Program-made: the position numbers and the translations under genes
The notes under the pieces: model-generated
The model's input: the letters and a program-made list of their open reading frames with translations, nothing else
The model's database searches: none
What the model was told of the DNA's origin: nothing
Shown here: piece after piece, positions 2,347 to 42,706 of the stretch
Numbering within the stretch: position 1 is the stretch's first letter
Layout: each line of letters begins with the position of its first letter
From: Nitrospirota bacterium
GTDB lineage: Bacteria; Nitrospirota; UBA9217
Assembly (NCBI GenBank): GCA_049793155.1
Contig: JBARBN010000106.1
Location: forward strand, 16,390-80,389
Length of the DNA stretch: 64,000 nucleotides
Direction of reading: 5' to 3'

Positions 2347-2811
2347 TTACCCGGCATTCCGGGAAACGGTGAAGATCAGCGCAGACTCATCACAGTCGGG
2401 GAACTTGACGCAGTTCAGGCAGTCCGTCCATATCTTATGAGGAAGCTCTTTTTTATCCACCTCGGCAAAACCGAGCTTTCTGAAAAAGCCGGACTGGTAG
2501 GTCAGCACAAACACCCGTTCGACCCTCAGCTCGGCGGCCTCTGCCAGGCATCGCCGCACCAGTTCACCTCCGATACCGCTTTTCACCCGGTCCTGCCTCA
2601 CCGCGAGGGATCGGATCTCGGCAAGGCCGTCCCAGCTCACATGGAGCGCGGCCGCGCCAACGAGAGAACCATTGTCCTCATAGACGTGAAAATCCCGGAG
2701 ATGCTCATAGAGCTCGTTCAGGGTGCGCGGCAGCATCTGTCCCGAATCGGCATAACTATTGACCAGCGATTGGATCGCCTTAACATCCATGAATGTTGCT
2801 TTTCGTATCAT
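2347..2811 (-). CDS. GNAT family N-acetyltransferase
   Basis: About 154 aa with an acetyl-CoA binding-like core (RQDRVKSGIGGELVRRC). The start was placed at the ATG (MIRKATFMDV) rather than the TTG used in the track. Confidence 0.7.
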   Translation of the reverse strand: MIRKATFMDVKAIQSLVNSYADSGQMLPRTLNELYEHLRDFHVYEDNGSLVGAAALHVSWDGLAEIRSLAVRQDRVKSGIGGELVRRCLAEAAELRVERVFVLTYQSGFFRKLGFAEVDKKELPHKIWTDCLNCVKFPDCDESALIFTVSRNAG

Positions 2812-2970
2812 GGACAATAATTACCCTGTTGACGGAATAAAGTCAAACAAAAAAACTTTTTCGCTTGCTTTCAAAGGCCCATATGCCGGTAACGCCGCCA
2901 GCTTATAAACGCGATGAAGCCGGTGGAACGCCGCGCCAGGCAAACCTGGCCTCGACAGGCAAAAGGACTC

Positions 2971-3000
2971 TTGACTTTGGCGTGTTGATTGGAGTATATT
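2971..3000 (+). promoter_or_regulatory. Putative sigma70-type promoter upstream of clpC (TTGACT-N18-TATATT)
   Basis: TTGACT lies at 2971-2976 and TATATT at 2995-3000, about 50 nt upstream of the clpC start. Spacing is 18 nt. Confidence 0.25.
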
Positions 3001-3049
3001 TTATTCAAGTGAACTGAAATCATGCTGCAATGAAGGTGGTTCTTCTAAT

Positions 3050-5491
3050 ATGATGTTCGAAAAATTCACGGAACGGGGAAGAAAAGTTATCGTCTATGCA
3101 CGGGAGGAGGCGGAGCGGCTCCAGAACGATTATCTGGGAACGGAACACGTTCTGCTCGGCACGCTGCGTGAAGAAGACGGGATCCCGGTAGCAGTGCTCC
3201 GCAAGATGGGCATTGATGTCGATCAGATTCGCACGGAGGTGGAACGGAATCTTCCCTCGAGCGGGAACACCCTCACCTTCGGCGACATTCCCTTTACTCC
3301 CCGCGCAAAGAAGGTCCTTGAATATGCAGTCGAGGAAGCGCGGCTTCTTGGACATAACTATATCGGCAGTGAGCACTTGCTCCTCGGGCTGATCCGTGAG
3401 GAGGAAGGCATCGGCGGAAAGATCCTTCGCAGTTTCGGAGTGAATCTGCTGGGCTCCCGCCAACTGGTCATCAACTACCTGCGTCGTGCGGCGACCCAGG
3501 TGAGCGCAAAAAAAAGCCCTACCCCGGCCCTCGACGAGTTCAGCAGGGACCTTACGCAGCTGGCCAGGAGCGGCAAGCTCGATCCGGTCATCGGACGAGA
3601 TCAGGAAATTGAACGCGTCCTTCATATCCTCTCCCGCAGGACCAAGAACAACCCCGTCATTATCGGCGAACCCGGCATCGGCAAGACGGCGATCGTCGAG
3701 GGGCTTGCCCAGCGGATCATCAATTCAGACGTCCCGGAGAACATCCAGAACCGTCGTGTGGTATCGCTCGATCTGGGCGCCTTGATCGCGGGAACCAAAT
3801 ACCGCGGCCAGTTCGAAGAACGGCTCAAGATCGTCATGAAGGAGATCGTGCAGGCCGATAATATCATCCTGTTCATAGACGAGCTGCATACCCTGGTAGG
3901 CGCGGGGGCCGCTGAAGGCTCCATCGATGCTTCGAGCATGCTGAAGCCGGCCCTGGCGCGCGGCGAGGTCCATTGCATCGGAGCCACGACGCTCGATGAG
4001 TACCGAAAACACATCGAAAAGGACGGCGCCCTCAAACGGCGGTTCCAGCCGATCTACGTTCAGCCGCCCAACGTCGATGAGACCATCAACATCATAAAAG
4101 GCCTTCGTTCAAAGTACGAATCACACCACAAGATCAAGATCACCGATGAGGCCGTTGTCGCTTCCGCGCAGCTCTCGGACCGCTACATGACGGACCGTTT
4201 TCTTCCCGATAAAGCCATTGACGTCATCGATGAGGCGGGAGCAAAGGCGAAGCTCAAACGCTACACCTGCCCCACCGAGATGAAGGTCATAGAGAAAAAG
4301 CTCAAAAAACTCGAACAGGAAAAGAACCTTTTCTCGCGGATCAAGGATTATGTGCGGGTGGAGTCCATCCAGGAAGAGGAAGACCGCCTGCGCGAAACGC
4401 TCGAGGGCATTCACAAGGACTGGAAGGACGACCAGGAGAAGAACATCCCCATTGTCGATGAAGAGGACATTGCGCTGATCGTGTCGCATATCACCGGCAT
4501 TCCGCTTTCGCGGCTCGAGGAAAAAGAAGCCTCCCGCCTTCTCAGAATGGAAGAAGAGATCCACAAGAGGATCGTGGGTCAGGATGCGGCGATCGAAGCG
4601 GTATCCCGCGCCATTCGACGTTCACGGGTCGGGCTCAAGACGCGCAAGCAGCCCATCGGCTCGTTCATCTTCCTCGGCCCCACCGGCGTCGGCAAGACGG
4701 AACTCGCCAGGTCGCTCGCCCAGTTCCTGTTCGACACCGAAGACGCGCTCATTCGCGTCGATATGTCCGAATATATGGAAAAGTTCAGTTCATCCCGGCT
4801 CGTCGGCTCGCCTCCCGGGTATGTCGGGTATGATGACGGCGGTCAGTTGACGGAAAAGATCAGGCGCCGTCCCTACTCGGTCGTGCTCTTTGACGAGATA
4901 GAGAAGGCCCACCCGGATATCTTTAACATGCTGCTCCAGGTCCTCGATGACGGCTTTATGACGGACAGCTTCGGCAGGAAAGTGGACTTCCGCAATACCA
5001 TCATCATTATGACATCGAATCTCGGTGCCAGAATGATCGATAAGGATACGACGCTTGGCTTCCAGCAGGCGAGTGCCAGGTCGCAATATGACAAAATGAA
5101 GGACAATGTCACTTCGGAGCTCAAGAGGGCGTTCAACCCCGAGTTTCTGAACAGGATCGACGACGTGGTCGTTTTCCATCCGCTCGCCAATGAACACCTC
5201 ATCAAGATCGTGGATATGCTGGTCCTTGAGCTGAACAACCAGATGGTGCATGACCGGAACATCGAGCTCGAGGTAAGCCAGGAAGTGAAGGAGTGGCTTA
5301 TTCAGGAAAACTTCCAGCCCACCTATGGCGCCAGGCCCATGCGGCGGGCGATCCAGAAGCATCTCGCGGACCCGCTTTCAGAGCACATCCTGAGAGGACG
5401 TTTTAAAGACGTGCACAAGGTGCTCGTGACGCTCAAGGACGGGGCGGTTGATTTTCAGGAAGTGGAGTCCGTTGTGCTTGCCAACGTCTGA
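3050..5491 (+). CDS. clpC: ATP-dependent Clp protease ATP-binding subunit ClpC (Clp_N repeats plus two AAA+ modules)
   Basis: 813 aa with Clp N-domain repeats ([11 protein letters not shown] / [11 protein letters not shown]). Walker A motifs are GEPGIGKT and GPTGVGKT. There is no long ClpB-type middle coiled-coil. Confidence 0.9.
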
Positions 5492-31629: not shown

Positions 31630-33444
31630 ATGTTTTGTGCCATGACGAACCTGCTCACCTTCATATCCAGATCCCTTGCGGCAAAACTGATCATTGCCCT
31701 TGCCTTGCTCATCGTCATCGGAGGGGGGATATCCTCTTACGCGTTGATCCATGCCGGCAAAAATAATCTTGTAAATGAAGCCGTTAAAGACGCCGCCTCT
31801 TCCTCGGACCTCGTTAAAAAGAGCGTGCACTACAGCATGCTCACCCGCAACAGAGAGGCCATACAGCGCACCATAGACGACCTGAAGTCGGCCAGGGATA
31901 TCGGGAAAATAAAACTATTCGACAGCAAGGGAAGCATTTTTTATTCGTCGGATCACGAGGAGATCGGCCATCAGGTCAATAAGGCTGATCGCGCCTGTCA
32001 GGGCTGTCATGCTAATGGCGCAAAACCTGCCAATACCCTGGGTGAGGCCGGTCAATGGACGACCTATCGAAGCGAAGAAGGCAACAACATTCTGACGGTT
32101 GTCACGCCGATCTACAACGAACCTTCCTGTTTTACATCCGCCTGCCACGTCCATTCCCAGAACCAGCGGGTACTCGGCATCCTTGCGGCCGATTTTTCAC
32201 TGGCCTCCGTTGATGAAAACATCAAAAGGCAGACAATACAGACGACCCTGTATGCCCTTGCCCTGATGAGCATGATCTCCGTCGTCCTCTACCTCATCCT
32301 CCGGAAACTCGTATTGAAACCCGTCAGCAGCCTCTCGAACGCCATGGCAACCGTTGCGGAAGGAGACCTGGGCCGCCGGGTGACGCCGGTTTCCCGGGAT
32401 GAGATCGGCCTGCTCGTCCGCAGCTTCAATGACATGATAGAAGAGCTCAGGACAGCGAGGGAAAAGATGGAGGATTGGACCGCGAGCCTCGAACGGGAGG
32501 TGGCAATAAAGTCGAAGGAATTGAAGAGGTCCCAGGACAACCTGATAGAGGCGGAGAAACTTGCAGCCCTGGGAAGACTGACCGCCGATGTGGCTCACGA
32601 GATAAGGAACCCGCTCACCGTTATCGGTGGCTTTGCCCGCAGGCTCCACAAGAGCGCTACAGGAGAAAAAGAGAAGGAACGAGCCGACGTCATCGTCTCC
32701 GAGGTGAACCGGCTCGAGAAAATATTGCGGGATATCCTTACCTTCTCAGGGGAGGTCCGGTCTTGCCTTGAAAAACACCCGGTCGGGGAAATCGTGCGTG
32801 AGGTGGTCAACAGCCACGAACAGGTATTCATCGAGCAAAACATAAACATCGAGGTGGCGATGGGAAATAACCTCCCTCCCATCCTCATAGACAGATACCA
32901 GGTCAAGCAGGCCCTCACCAATCTCATCATGAACGCTTGCGATGCAATGCCCTCCGGCGGGATGTTGAGGATAACGGCGGGGATCGAATCCTTCAATGAT
33001 GTGCGGTATGTTGTCCTGCAGGTGTCAGATACGGGGCACGGGATCGATGAAAATAAATTTTCTCTGATATTCGAGCCCTTCTTTACGACAAAGGCGGCCG
33101 GCCGCGGCACCGGCCTGGGTCTTTCCATAGCGAGAAAGATCATGGAAGAACATGGAGGATTCATCAAGGCCGCGATCTCTGCGGAAAAAGGCGCAGCGTT
33201 CAGCCTCTATTTCCCCCAGCAGAGCGAAGAAGAATCACAAAAGATAAAATGCTGGGAATTCAAAAAATGCGGCAGGGACAAGGATGCAACAACGAAATGC
33301 CCCGCCTACTCTAATTTCGGCAGGATCTGCTGGGCAGTGGCGGGCACCTTCTGCGAAGGCAAAGTCCAGGGGACTTTTGCGCAGAAATATGAAGATTGCA
33401 GGAAATGCGACTATTATCAGATGATGAAAAAAGCGAGAGAGTAA
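31630..33444 (+). CDS. Sensor histidine kinase with a heme-type periplasmic domain (CQGCH, CFTSACH), HAMP, HisKA, HATPase_c and a C-terminal two-CW-like Cys/Trp-rich module
   Basis: The periplasmic region carries CxxCH at ADRACQGCHANG and a CX4CH-like SCFTSACH. HisKA is HEIRNPLT. HATPase is GTGLGLSIARKIM. The C-terminus is KCWEFKKCGRDKDATTKCPAYSNFGRICWAVAGTFCEGK...CRKCDYY. Confidence 0.8.
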   Translation: MFCAMTNLLTFISRSLAAKLIIALALLIVIGGGISSYALIHAGKNNLVNEAVKDAASSSDLVKKSVHYSMLTRNREAIQRTIDDLKSARDIGKIKLFDSKGSIFYSSDHEEIGHQVNKADRACQGCHANGAKPANTLGEAGQWTTYRSEEGNNILTVVTPIYNEPSCFTSACHVHSQNQRVLGILAADFSLASVDENIKRQTIQTTLYALALMSMISVVLYLILRKLVLKPVSSLSNAMATVAEGDLGRRVTPVSRDEIGLLVRSFNDMIEELRTAREKMEDWTASLEREVAIKSKELKRSQDNLIEAEKLAALGRLTADVAHEIRNPLTVIGGFARRLHKSATGEKEKERADVIVSEVNRLEKILRDILTFSGEVRSCLEKHPVGEIVREVVNSHEQVFIEQNINIEVAMGNNLPPILIDRYQVKQALTNLIMNACDAMPSGGMLRITAGIESFNDVRYVVLQVSDTGHGIDENKFSLIFEPFFTTKAAGRGTGLGLSIARKIMEEHGGFIKAAISAEKGAAFSLYFPQQSEEESQKIKCWEFKKCGRDKDATTKCPAYSNFGRICWAVAGTFCEGKVQGTFAQKYEDCRKCDYYQMMKKARE

Positions 33445-33672: not shown

Positions 33673-33951
33673 TTAATACTTCATTCCTTTATTTTCGGGC
33701 GCTTCCTTCTTCTCATCGCCCTTCATCATCTTATCGTCCGTCATCATCTTGTCGTCTTTCATCATCGTATCATCTTTTTTCATCGTATCATCGCTTTTCA
33801 TCGTCTCGTCTTTCATCATCCCCTTGTCGTCTTTCATCATCGAATCATCCTTCTTCATGGACTTGTCGTCCATGTCCGCGGCAAAGACGGGACCCGCAAG
33901 CAGGAATACGGCGATGGTCGCGAGCAGAAATGTTCCTATTTTCCTAGTCAT
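33673..33951 (-). CDS. Secreted Met/Asp/Lys-rich repeat protein ((M)MKDD pentapeptide repeats)
   Basis: The RBS 'aaggaggtgaaaacc' precedes the ATG at 33951. The signal peptide is MTRKIGTFLLATIAVFLLAGPVFA. The mature part is tandem repeats MKKDDSMMKDDKGMMKDETMKSDDTMKKDDTMMKDDKMMTDDKMMKGD, encoded by tandem DNA repeats. Confidence 0.65.
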   Translation of the reverse strand: MTRKIGTFLLATIAVFLLAGPVFAADMDDKSMKKDDSMMKDDKGMMKDETMKSDDTMKKDDTMMKDDKMMTDDKMMKGDEKKEAPENKGMKY

Positions 33952-34243
33952 GGTTTTCACCTCCTTTCGGGCCTTCAAGAGAATGGATCCAGAAGCCTTC
34001 GGAAGCGGATATCTTTCCCGCTTGCCTCGGTCTCTTTGTGCCACTGTATTGATAGTATACCGCGGTAAGATCACGCGGTGATCACGGCAATATTAATTTA
34101 CTAAACGGGGTGCACTGCTGCGCGGGGTGATACTATAGAATGATAATTGGCAGGTGTCAATTAAACACATCGACATGCGAAGGAGGCGTATCATGCAGAT
34201 GATTCAGCATGCCGCCGGAGTGCTTTACCATGAAAAGTCTGGC

Positions 34244-35482: not shown

Positions 35483-36325
35483 TTACTGCAGCATCACGTA
35501 ATCGGCGTCGTGGAGCGAAACTGAACCCCTCTCGACCTGTCCGGGGACCGCGGGCAGGACAACTTTGTACGTAAAGGATGTCTGTCGGGCAAGCTGTTCC
35601 GGAATACCCCGCTTCCAGGCATGGCCCACGCCTGAAAGCACGATCATGGTCTTGCCAGGGTGCTTCCGGTGATATTCGATCAGGTTCCAGGCCATGCTCT
35701 TATCCCATACCATCTGTGCTTCGCAGAAGTTCAGGAACTGCCTGTCTCCATGGTGCGCGTGCCCCGCATAAGCCTGTCTGATAAATTGCATGTACGTCGG
35801 ATCGATATCGCAGCTTATCCCCGGCGGAAGTTTTTGTTTCTGCTCCGAGTTCAACGCGGTAAAGCCGCTTCGTGCAACAGCGCTGCTGATATCAGCCGGG
35901 ATATTGAGCCCGACGAGCGGTATCCGATGCTCCCTCGCAAAGAGAAAGATGCCGCGGTATTCGGGCCAGGGCTGTTGCCAGTTATCATAGTACGATGGAA
36001 GGAACTGCTCCAGCGATGAAGAACCGTTTACCCACGAATTCAGGACTTTTTGACTATCGGACCTGAACATCTCCAGGCCGACGGAAATAGGCGCGCCCGA
36101 TTCGTGAAACGACCTGATGATCCTGAGCTCCATGTCATGGTGGGCCTGTTCATCGTGTACTTCCCCGACGAAAACGATGTCGGCTTTACTGATCTCCCGG
36201 ATCATGCGGTCGAAAGAAATAACGGCACCGTCGCGGACACGCAGGATGTCGCCGCCCGCGCATACGCGGGTGAAGCAGGCAAAGACCAGAAAAACGGCTG
36301 CCAGGATGAACGCTCTTGATCTCAT
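35483..36325 (-). CDS. ChaN-family (heme-binding, Tiki/TraB-like) lipoprotein
   Basis: A signal peptide is present. The motifs FVGEVHDEQAHH and LSGVGHAWKRG are typical of ChaN/PF04187. Confidence 0.65.
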   Translation of the reverse strand: MRSRAFILAAVFLVFACFTRVCAGGDILRVRDGAVISFDRMIREISKADIVFVGEVHDEQAHHDMELRIIRSFHESGAPISVGLEMFRSDSQKVLNSWVNGSSSLEQFLPSYYDNWQQPWPEYRGIFLFAREHRIPLVGLNIPADISSAVARSGFTALNSEQKQKLPPGISCDIDPTYMQFIRQAYAGHAHHGDRQFLNFCEAQMVWDKSMAWNLIEYHRKHPGKTMIVLSGVGHAWKRGIPEQLARQTSFTYKVVLPAVPGQVERGSVSLHDADYVMLQ

Positions 36326-38372: not shown

Positions 38373-38642
38373 CTACCGTCGTGAACCTCTCATACCGCTG
38401 CCCATTCCGCCGCCGCCCATGCTGCCGGCCCCCGTATCCATACGGTCATGGATTTGGTCGCGGTTTCGGATCTGATCAGGAACACCGTCCCCGGTATTGT
38501 CTTTCAGCCGGTCACGGTCCCGCGTCTGGTCCATGGCTATGTTCGGATATGCGGCAGCCTTTTCTTCCGCCGGTGCAAGCCCTGCAATGCCCAAAAACAT
38601 GAAGCATGCTGCTATCAGAACAACAATCCGTCTCGTAAACAT
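38373..38642 (-). CDS. Small secreted protein with a Gly/Met-rich C-terminus
   Basis: The RBS 'agggagg' precedes the ATG at 38642. The signal peptide is MFTRRIVVLIAACFMFLGIAGLAPA. The C-terminus is GAGSMGGGGMGSGMRG. Confidence 0.5.
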   Translation of the reverse strand: MFTRRIVVLIAACFMFLGIAGLAPAEEKAAAYPNIAMDQTRDRDRLKDNTGDGVPDQIRNRDQIHDRMDTGAGSMGGGGMGSGMRGSRR

Positions 38643-39036
38643 GATCGGTCCTCCCTTTTTTGTTGGTGTGTATCCCACCGTCCCTGTTTTTTTCAATCAA
38701 CAGCCGGTTACTTCGCAGCTCCTCGGCCGAGGTGAGTACTCTTGCGCTGCGCTGTATACACTCATAAGACGACGGCCTGCGAAAAAGGTTACAGAGAAAG
38801 TTGATCACGCATCAAACCTGCCGGACACAGCTCCGTACCGCACACCTCGTCATGTGATGTACCGGCATTGGAATAACTCTTCGAGCAGCCCTGAAGGAAG
38901 GCCATCAGCAGGCAGACGTCAACGCTCGAAAAAAGCTTGTAGTATGGAATGGCATGATTGCGCTCCCTGGATCAGACTGGAGGGAAGCAACCGGTCGAGG
39001 GGACCCTTTAAATGGGTGAGCGTAAGATGTTTGACC

Positions 39037-39495
39037 CTACGAACGGCTGGCGACGATCTGAAGTGTCCTGGCATCCCGCTTCCCCTGAAAATACTTGTCA
39101 AGGACACGCTCGAACACCGAATGCGGTTCGGTCACCAGCGCGAACAGGGTCATGGATGATTGAAGCTTCATGTCGTCGGGGTGTCCGAAAATATCCGGAG
39201 CAGACGACCCCTGAACAGCAAGGACCACTTCCGCGCACTCCTTGAGCCGCGCCCCGAGAAGAGGATGGCTGATGTAGTCCCGCGCTTCTTCCAGGCTTTT
39301 GATGGCATAATGTCGGGTTGTCGGGCTGTGTCCCAATCCGTCGATCTGCGGGAATATGTACCACATCCAGTGCGAGCGCTTCAAACCGTTCCGCAACTCG
39401 GCAAGGACACGGTCATAGACCCCTTCCTGCACGCTGATGAAGCGGTTCAGATCATAGGGATCGTTGCAATCGTCGGCCCTGTTGCCACGTTCCAT
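39037..39495 (-). CDS. DUF1810-family protein
   Basis: The RBS 'aggaga' precedes the ATG at 39495. The conserved stretch HWMWYIFPQ is characteristic of DUF1810. Confidence 0.6.
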   Translation of the reverse strand: MERGNRADDCNDPYDLNRFISVQEGVYDRVLAELRNGLKRSHWMWYIFPQIDGLGHSPTTRHYAIKSLEEARDYISHPLLGARLKECAEVVLAVQGSSAPDIFGHPDDMKLQSSMTLFALVTEPHSVFERVLDKYFQGKRDARTLQIVASRS

Positions 39496-39592
39496 GTCTG
39501 TCTCCTGCAGGTGACCCAAAGAGGTTCCGGGCACATGATGAAGATCGGATGATCAGAAGAAGAAAGAAAAATCAAACAGTACGGACCTGACC

Positions 39593-40012
39593 TTAAGATT
39601 TCTTCTCATTCGCCGCTTTGCCTTCGATGTATGGCTTGTACTTCTGGTCCTCGTCGAGGATGTGCAGGTTCAGCCAATTAGCCATGAGCAGCATCACCTC
39701 GATCGTAGTCGGGGAATGCCCGCTGTCGAACGCCTCCTTGAGGCTCTGCGCTTTCCTGACCAGGGTATCGTGCATCTCCTTATGCAGGTCAAAGTCAGGA
39801 TACCCGTGCTGGAGCAGCAGCCGTTCCTCGGCCTTGAAATGATAATCGGTAAAGTCCACGAACTCGTCTACGACCGTACCTATCACGTCACTGCCCTTGC
39901 CCGCGTGCATCGCGTCGTACATGGCGTTCACGAGGTCGAAAAGCTTTTTGTGCTGCTCGTCGATCTCCGCCACATTGACCGAATATTTATTTTTCCATTT
40001 TAAATAGCCCAT
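39593..40012 (-). CDS. Bacteriohemerythrin (hemerythrin-like metal-binding domain)
   Basis: The hemerythrin His/Glu ligands are in the conserved pattern IDEQHKKLF ... HF.AEE ... HK.MH ... WL..HI. The RBS is 'gggagaggg'. Confidence 0.8.
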   Translation of the reverse strand: MGYLKWKNKYSVNVAEIDEQHKKLFDLVNAMYDAMHAGKGSDVIGTVVDEFVDFTDYHFKAEERLLLQHGYPDFDLHKEMHDTLVRKAQSLKEAFDSGHSPTTIEVMLLMANWLNLHILDEDQKYKPYIEGKAANEKKS

Positions 40013-40437: not shown

Positions 40438-40689
40438 ATGAATTGCTGGGAATACAAAAACTGCGCGGAAGAGGTATTCAAGACTTGTCCTGCGTATCCT
40501 GACAGCGGTGAGCGCTGCTGGGTGATCGCAGGTGTAAAGTGCCAGGGCGTCGGGGAGACGGAGTTCTCAAGCCTGGATGAGCAGATCGCCTGTTGCGGCA
40601 AATGCGATTTCTACGGACATGGGAGCGCGCGGGATCGCCTGAAGCCGGCTGACAACAGCGAATATGATCAAGAAGCGGCAGGCATATGA
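40438..40689 (+). CDS. Standalone two-CW-like Cys/Trp-rich domain protein (83 aa)
   Basis: MNCWEYKNCAEEVFKTCPAYPDSGERCWVIAGVKCQGVG...CCGKCDFY. Seven Cys and two Trp are shared with the C-terminus of the kinase at 31630-33444. Confidence 0.6.
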   Translation: MNCWEYKNCAEEVFKTCPAYPDSGERCWVIAGVKCQGVGETEFSSLDEQIACCGKCDFYGHGSARDRLKPADNSEYDQEAAGI

Positions 40690-42415: not shown

Positions 42416-42706
42416 CTATTCTTTTCTGCTATACAAGGTACAGTAGGCCTCCGGGCTGACCGAACCCTCCACTACCGTGCAAGTGCCATCGGCCGTTTTC
42501 GTCTTGCCGGGGACAAAGAGGTTACAATTGCTGCATTTCTTATCGCCATTCGGCTTGTCCTGGTAATTCGCCGCGGATTTGGACGACTTTGCCGCTAATG
42601 CCTTACCGGTAAAAGCCGATGCGAGTGCGACGCATGTTACTGCAGCAGCGCCTTTAAGCAGTGTGCGGCGGGAAATCAATTGGTCCATGTCCAGGTCTTC
42701 GTTCAT
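42416..42706 (-). CDS. High-potential iron-sulfur protein (HiPIP) with a Tat signal peptide
   Basis: The RBS 'aaggagg' precedes the ATG at 42706. The Tat motif is SRRTLLKGAAAV. The C-terminus has four Cys in HiPIP spacing (CSNCNLF ... CTVVEG ... YCTLY). Confidence 0.8.
   Translation of the reverse strand: MNEDLDMDQLISRRTLLKGAAAVTCVALASAFTGKALAAKSSKSAANYQDKPNGDKKCSNCNLFVPGKTKTADGTCTVVEGSVSPEAYCTLYSRKE

Follow-up and report, generated by a model that had tools for sequence, protein, structure and literature searches.

We found that the two-CW domain, a Cys- and Trp-containing domain present twice in the 64-kb stretch of DNA analysed here (the window), is a modular and promiscuous component of prokaryotic signal transduction. 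Among its relatives, recurrent fusions and operon linkage connect it with diverse transmitter and output domains, as is characteristic of a signal-transduction module. Its presence on nearly all classes of bacterial signalling proteins makes it likely, as judged from sequence, that the domain contains metal and works as a sensor or for docking. The first-pass annotation of the window had noticed the resemblance between the two copies, and overlooked the main point, namely how widespread and promiscuous the domain is as a signalling module. The window copies are new members of a catalogued, functionally blank family, to which the evidence for a signalling module is the addition.

Two homologous copies in the window

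One copy forms the C-terminal tail of a sensor histidine kinase and the other a free protein of 83 residues. The features concerned are as follows.

31630..33444, + strand: sensor histidine kinase, 604 aa (Pfam, hydropathy)
31996..32148, + strand: putative periplasmic heme-c attachment motifs of the kinase, CQGCH (aa 123-127) and CFTSACH (aa 167-173)
33238..33435, + strand: two-CW C-terminal tail of the kinase, aa 537-602 (NF045718 HMM match)
40438..40689, + strand: standalone two-CW protein, 83 aa (ORF with ATG start)
40438-40617, + strand: two-CW domain of the 83-aa protein, aa 1-60, followed by a variable, probably disordered tail

Both copies carry the pattern C-W...C...C-P...C-W...C...C-x2-C. 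BLASTP aligned residues 1-59 of the 83-aa protein onto residues 539-596 of the kinase with 39% identity (E=8e-15), which places in register the seven Cys and two Trp that the first-pass annotation had matched. The framework Cys are C3, C9, C17, C27, C35, C53, and C56 in the 83-aa protein and residues 541, 547, 557, 567, 575, 590, and 593 in the kinase, where the two Trp are residues 542 and 568. The annotation had suggested, with reservation, that a family named two-CW exists, and had allowed that a database search might assign the two regions to unrelated families. Both proved to belong to NCBIfam NF045718 (two_CW_domain), for which the curated cutoff is 35 bits; the 83-aa protein scored 39.0 bits (E=7.9e-10) and the kinase tail 69.5 bits (E=2.3e-19). 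Since the family has already been catalogued, the window copies are members of a known family and not of a new one. Our own family HMM scored 84 bits on the kinase tail, and the extent of the NF045718 match agrees with the position of about 33240-33444 given earlier. A six-frame regex scan of the 64-kb window revealed no third copy.

Cysteine framework and predicted fold

The two-CW domain is a small (about 60-95 aa), mostly helical, cytoplasmic domain with seven near-invariant Cys and two Cys-Trp dipeptides. Its consensus is N-C-W-E-F-K-K-C-G-R-E...G-V-C-P-A...G-R-x-C-W-A-V-A-G-T-x-C-x-G-K-V-Q-G-T-F-A-Q-K-x3-C-x2-C-D-F-Y, with the Cys spaced as C-x5-C-x9to17-C-x9to20-C-x7-C-x14-C-x2-C. The alignment of homologues that had been proposed for defining invariant Cys was made with 383 unique domains. 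All of C-W-C-C-C-W-C-C-C, that is, all seven Cys and both Trp, were present in 348 of them, most exceptions being truncated sequences, and three of the seven Cys were strictly invariant. The near-invariance of all seven Cys across the 383 domains strengthens the earlier idea of a metal or redox cofactor, and on this conservation we consider it very likely that the seven Cys bind metal. No coordinated loss of Cys subsets, which would mark separate metal sites, was observed among the 383 domains, and no conserved His was found in the alignment. A point against a metal-based sensor is that the Cys spacing matches no canonical Fe-S or zinc-ribbon signature. CxxCxxC is absent and only a single CxxC is present, so that the domain does not conform to the motifs of 4Fe-4S ferredoxin, rubredoxin, or zinc-ribbon sites (CxxCxxCxxxCP, or two CxxC knuckles), and no Pfam match was obtained.

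The segment between C-P-A and the second C-W falls into two length classes, with 23 residues in about 80% of the domains and 12-13 residues in the rest. The short-loop class comprises both window copies and standalone proteins of 68-85 aa. AF2 modelling of the short-loop kinase tail gave a pLDDT of 65. Because of this low confidence, a typical long-loop member was chosen for modelling; it yielded a pLDDT of 91 and a pTM of 0.81, with the Cys placed at helix ends and in a hairpin. In Pfam, the 83-aa protein matched no family at E<=1, and the region of the kinase tail was likewise without a match. A search of the PDB with the family profile gave no match at E<=10, and Foldseek found no structural match for the domain. 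The modelled fold is probably novel.

NCBI already names many relatives 'two-CW domain-containing protein', and NF045718 is a sequence model without a described function, structure, or cofactor. Full-text searches of one literature library for 'two-CW' and NF045718 found no paper naming the domain, nor was any paper found for the combination of chemoreceptor, hemerythrin, and cysteine-rich domain. With no Pfam model, PDB sequence relative, Foldseek match, or paper to its name, the domain is as uncharacterised in function as the first reading had supposed.

The host histidine kinase

The kinase is organised in the order TM1, periplasmic domain, TM2, HAMP (aa 224-274), HisKA (aa 314-373), HATPase_c (aa 421-531), and two-CW tail, with the H-box HEIRNP at aa 323. 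The two-CW domain thus lies C-terminal to the catalytic domain, in keeping with its description as an output-side appendage. Orthologs with the two-CW tail were found in loci L001, L002, and L047-L072. Mean pairwise identity among orthologs was 81% for the two-CW tail, 74% for DHp, 67% for CA, 54% for HAMP, and 49% for the periplasmic region, and the tail is therefore the best-conserved region of the window kinase. In one ortholog locus, L068, the match to the kinase body (1355-2656) stops where a separate 171-aa two-CW ORF (2655-3170) starts; natural gene fission would explain this, as would a frameshift or assembly error.

Hydropathy placed the heme-c motifs between the two hydrophobic (TM) segments. 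CQGCH and Cx3-4CH (Cx4CH in the window kinase, Cx3CH in some orthologs) were invariant in their Cys and His in 17 orthologs of 47-89% identity, which substantiates the periplasmic heme motifs noted at first pass. Because of this invariance, 'heme-c sensor kinase' is a reasonable, provisional label for the predicted product of 31630-33444. The periplasmic region showed only weak Pfam similarity to dCache_1 and Mcp40H-20 sensors. Together with the invariant CxxCH/Cx4CH motifs, this weak dCache_1 similarity suggests that the periplasmic domain may be a heme-c Cache-like sensor.

The following genes lie downstream of the kinase on the opposite strand.

33673-34074, - strand: small ORF located between the kinase and REC-HD-GYP genes, its product hydrophobic near the N-terminus, with a repeat rich in Lys, Met, and Asp (MMKDD/KDDKMM) and without Pfam match; the equivalent in L040 was called as a gene of 92 aa
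34244-35308, - strand: REC-HD-GYP (HD_5) response regulator, convergent with the kinase
35483-36325, - strand: ChaN/Cofac_haem_bdg heme-binding protein, beyond the REC-HD-GYP gene

The REC-HD-GYP and ChaN/Cofac_haem_bdg genes are kept only in the closest relative, L001, and none of the kinase neighbours, the REC-HD-GYP gene included, is conserved beyond it. The search for a conserved cognate response regulator of the kinase found none, the convergent REC-HD-GYP gene failing on this count.

The standalone protein and its neighbours

The 83-aa ORF is preceded by a Shine-Dalgarno sequence, AAAGGTGGG, about 9 nt upstream of its ATG, and has 28 orthologs at 50-100% identity. On the basis of this good Shine-Dalgarno sequence and the orthologs, we regard it as a real, selected gene. 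NCBI labels the exact sequence 'hypothetical protein'. The protein is, by its sequence, a divergent short-loop two-CW member with its own clade signature: the alignment of the clade shows EFSSLDEQI where the family has KVQGTFAQK, with every framework Cys kept. C52 is an extra, non-conserved Cys, the position being C, Y, H, or F among orthologs. No riboswitch or other RNA element was found in the long intergenic regions flanking the gene, and no sigma-70-like promoter match was found for it.

The surroundings of the gene include the following.

38373-38696, - strand: ORF of 107 aa, signal-like at its N-terminus and rich in Gly and Met at its C-terminus (GAGSMGGGGMGSGMRGS), without family match
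39037-39534, - strand: DUF1810 gene (Pfam)
39593..40012, - strand: bacteriohemerythrin gene (NF033749, 140 bits; Pfam hemerythrin)
42416-42706, - strand: HiPIP with TAT signal (Pfam), with sub-threshold similarity to Iro iron oxidase (NF041615, 48 bits where the cutoff is 100)

The hemerythrin gene is divergent from the 83-aa two-CW gene, with a 425-bp intergenic region between them. Pfam confirmed the hemerythrin, DUF1810, and HiPIP neighbours that the first-pass annotation had named; the link to them that it implied found no support. Their adjacency occurs only in near-identical contigs and is absent around the more distant orthologs P0128, P0119, and P0133 (66-82% identity), and these three genes were rejected as partners of the 83-aa protein. 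The link that it implied to the kinase fared no better. In L001, the closest other genome, the 10 kb on either side of an 89%-identical kinase lack the small gene, and the 7-kb spacing between the two genes is not conserved; coupling by synteny was likewise rejected. Since the adjacency is limited to near-identical contigs and the small gene does not lie within 10 kb of the kinase in L001, synteny supports no partnership of the 83-aa protein with the hemerythrin or with the kinase. The neighbours of the three orthologs are variable and non-signalling, which counts against the sensor reading.

Fusions to signalling domains

Two-CW loci were fetched and examined by ORF calling and HMM scan, which gave 101 domains, and architectures were assigned by Pfam. 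The following were recovered.

HAMP-HisKA-HATPase-twoCW (orthologs of the window kinase): L047-L072
PAS-HisKA_2-HATPase-twoCW: P0170
twoCW-PAS(-GAF)-HK: P0210, P0224
REC-twoCW: P0161, P0212, P0201
twoCW-CheW: L073, L075
HAMP-MCP-twoCW: L105
MCP-twoCW-hemerythrin: L080, L099
twoCW-cNMP_binding-Pkinase: L077, L088
twoCW-PP2C: L088, L095 (second gene)
twoCW-cNMP-Pkinase-twoCW-PP2C: L101, P0138
twoCW-adenylate/guanylate cyclase: L109
GGDEF-twoCW: P0156
twoCW-DUF4118-Usp: L082, L083
rubrerythrin-like-twoCW: P0256

In a census of 56 long representatives, the accompanying domains were HATPase_c (14), HisKA (9), Response_reg (9), PAS_9 (7), Pkinase (5), cNMP_binding (5), PP2C (3), STAS (3), GGDEF (2), and GAF (2). 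The domain is thereby linked to two-component, chemotaxis, Ser/Thr-kinase/phosphatase, partner-switching, and cyclic-nucleotide pathways. It occurs at either terminus of multidomain proteins, mostly in the N-terminal (input) position, and this dominance favours the reading of the domain as a redox or oxidant input.

Size and spread of the family

When 1.84 billion representatives at 50% identity were searched exhaustively with HMMER, 1,975 matched the family with E<=1e-3 and 1,060 with E<=1e-10. A word-indexed profile search found at least 7,668 clusters at 90% identity (E<=1e-8), and a metagenome scan confirmed at least 567 loci. The host range was taken from a few dozen source labels, where present, and is not a systematic survey. 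The bacterial labels were Nitrospirota/Nitrospirae, Thermodesulfovibrionales, Desulfobacteraceae, Deltaproteobacteria, Polyangia, Planctomycetota, Omnitrophica, Terriglobia, Latescibacterota, Firmicutes, and Ammonifex degensii, and the archaeal ones were the Asgard archaea Thorarchaeota and Hodarchaeota. The window itself derives from an uncultured member of the Nitrospirota. Proteins of about 186 aa with two two-CW domains in tandem abound in the two Asgard groups (P0321-P0351, P0136, P0137), which shows that the family spans both prokaryotic domains. We take the labelled hosts to be mostly anaerobic lineages or lineages of anoxic habitats, and this favours the redox or oxidant reading.

Standalone copies and pairing of copies

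Standalone two-CW genes are often embedded in signalling operons. One follows genes for an NtrC-type regulator, a histidine kinase, and a REC protein; another lies 25 bp upstream of a CheW-CheW-MCP-CheB-CheR-CheA cluster. Further contexts are CheA-CheW-twoCW; an NtrC-type regulator, two-CW, and a hybrid histidine kinase; and an Rrf2 regulator followed by two-CW, the last being a hint of redox or metal chemistry. Among 92 proteins flanking standalone genes, 7 contained Response_reg and 4 CheW. Many standalone copies in this census have no signalling neighbour, which was counted against the reading as a signalling sensor. SelA (selenocysteine synthase) accounted for another 4 of the 92 flanking proteins, which may all come from one lineage; the candidate SelA loci, guessed from ORF size, are minus-strand ORFs of 469-491 aa in L094, L108, L120, and L124.

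Across the fetched loci, two-CW copies were frequently paired. The kinase-twoCW ortholog adjoins a standalone copy in L053 and L070, and standalone genes stand in tandem in L112, L116, and L126. A gene for twoCW-cNMP_binding-Ser/Thr kinase is followed by one for twoCW-PP2C in L088 (1484-3154 and 3191-4249) and in L095 (5229-6935 and 7049-8053), the twoCW-PP2C protein being confirmed by Pfam in both; in L091, the twoCW-Ser/Thr kinase gene adjoins a second, truncated two-CW copy. In L101 (608-3097) and P0138, kinase and phosphatase are fused into one protein of 820-829 aa with two two-CW domains. These gene pairs and fusions indicate that an opposing kinase and phosphatase each own a two-CW copy.

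Such pairing is what would be expected if the domain were a docking module with structural Zn, one that does no sensing itself and uses homotypic or heterotypic interaction to bring free two-CW proteins, or other signalling proteins with the domain, together with kinases, kinase/phosphatase pairs, and chemoreceptor arrays. The output position in REC-twoCW proteins, together with the tandem duplicates and adjacent gene pairs, is explained by docking or an adaptor function no less well than by sensing, and the fusion to the scaffold protein CheW, the Asgard tandem proteins, and the ability of the domain to stand at either terminus point in the same direction. However, seven Cys with a single CxxC are unusual for structural Zn sites, the association with diiron domains and with mostly anaerobic lineages is not predicted by docking, and the N-terminal input position is the dominant one in multidomain proteins. 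We regard docking without sensing, the main rival reading, as possible, with the balance tilted against it. Docking and sensing are compatible, and the domain could be a redox-controlled pairing module.

Proposed role as a metal-based input domain

In the sensor mechanism that we favour, the Cys of the two-CW domain would bind one or more metal centres, with Zn-thiolate sites or an Fe-S cluster as the candidates. If such a centre were oxidised, lost, or occupied by a ligand, the conformation or the pairing of the domain would alter, and this change would modulate the signalling domain attached to it or encoded alongside. The tail of the window kinase would thereby supplement the putative heme-c sensor on the periplasmic side with a redox or oxidant input from the cytoplasm, and the free 83-aa protein, as a divergent version consisting of the domain alone, would act on some partner in trans. 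We give even chances to the central proposition, predicted from architecture and conservation, that sensing takes place at the metal centre and that the domain provides a cytoplasmic input for redox state, oxidants, or gas. Besides the N-terminal position and the host lineages, two observations favour it. An opposing kinase and its phosphatase both carry the domain, which argues for a sensor, and the fusions to diiron domains (hemerythrin in L080 and L099, and P0256 with its two-CW at the rubredoxin position) argue for redox or metal chemistry.

A more specific form of this sensor mechanism is offered tentatively. The domain might represent an unrecognised class of cytoplasmic sensor with a fold outside the PDB, carrying an Fe-S or mixed metal-thiolate centre on its seven Cys, possibly in a 4+3 arrangement with an open or inter-subunit site. 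The signal might be O2, NO, an oxidant, or iron, with mostly anaerobic bacteria and Asgard archaea as the carriers, and the domain might act through homotypic pairing, such that free copies tune two-CW-bearing kinases, chemoreceptors, and kinase/phosphatase pairs.

A different kind of input is conceivable, in which a metal-stabilised fold would serve as a PilZ-like receiver and regulate the partner domain according to its occupancy by a diffusible ligand, be that a metal ion, a nucleotide messenger, or heme bound via Cys-Pro. The distribution of the two-CW domain over standalone small proteins, MCP C-termini, and REC and GGDEF fusions is like that of CZB and of PilZ. Residues other than Cys are conserved as well, namely E6, G11, R12, P21, R28, and the motif K-V-Q-G-T-x-A-x-K, and the invariant C-P dipeptide bears some resemblance to a heme-regulatory motif. 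The clade of the 83-aa protein, however, has replaced KVQGTFAQK and yet retained every Cys, which argues that the Cys framework, not the putative pocket, is the conserved core; we consider a ligand receiver of this kind unlikely. That the standalone forms are Cys-rich RiPP-like precursors or secreted products, with the kinase fusion incidental, would suit their small, Cys-rich ORFs (68-110 aa) and the HemN-like radical SAM enzyme next to one of them (L085), but was rejected as highly improbable on the strength of the in-frame fusions to many cytoplasmic signalling proteins at either end, the lack of a conserved maturase, protease, or exporter in the 92-protein neighbour census, and a whole domain that folds confidently in the AF2 model without leader/core organisation.

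The outputs of bacterial signalling are well mapped, and many input domains are still unassigned. If the two-CW domain is a metal-based redox or gas sensor, thousands of 'hypothetical' proteins would gain a function, oxidant sensing in uncultured anaerobes would gain a new handle, and the heme-c kinase of the window would integrate one periplasmic and one cytoplasmic signal.

Comparison with known systems

Within NF045718, the 83-aa protein stands apart from typical members, as it belongs to a divergent short-loop clade and scores just above the cutoff. Outside the family, the closest functional analogue in deployment is CZB, whose modular distribution is comparable. This small metal-thiolate domain of the cytoplasm, present in TlpD and DgcZ, is located at the C-termini of MCPs and also accompanies diguanylate cyclases, and it passes on an oxidant signal when its Zn-bound Cys is oxidised (PMC6715182, PMC8262984). 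The two-CW domain differs from it in giving no match to the Pfam family (PF13682), in its seven Cys and lack of a conserved His, and in its predicted topology. CZB folds as a bundle of four helices, in which a 3His/1Cys site binds the Zn.

The hemerythrin domains of DcrH-type MCPs are cytoplasmic metal-centre sensors of O2 or redox state placed C-terminal to the MCP signalling domain (PMC9388753). In some MCPs, the two-CW domain directly precedes such a hemerythrin domain. The chemoreceptors encoded at L080 (545-2827) and L099 (562-2871) have the order sensor-MCPsignal-twoCW-hemerythrin and are like DcrH-like MCPs, except that the two-CW domain is inserted between the signalling domain and the hemerythrin. 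Hemerythrin has a His/carboxylate diiron site in a four-helix bundle, whereas two-CW is Cys-based and unrelated in sequence.

The eukaryotic zf-CW domain (PF07496), also named for its Cys and Trp, is a chromatin reader that binds zinc with four Cys. The two-CW domain has seven and gave no Pfam match to it, so that the likeness is in name only. WhiB-like proteins, FNR, NreB, AirS, and the rubredoxin of rubrerythrin contain small iron centres with Cys ligands, which either sense O2, NO, or redox state or pass electrons to a diiron site. All of these differ from the two-CW domain in Cys number and spacing, and no Pfam or NCBIfam match to them was obtained. The last comparison is also one of position. 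P0256 (268 aa) combines a rubrerythrin-like diiron four-helix-bundle domain with a C-terminal two-CW domain, at the position where canonical rubrerythrin carries its rubredoxin Fe(Cys)4 domain.
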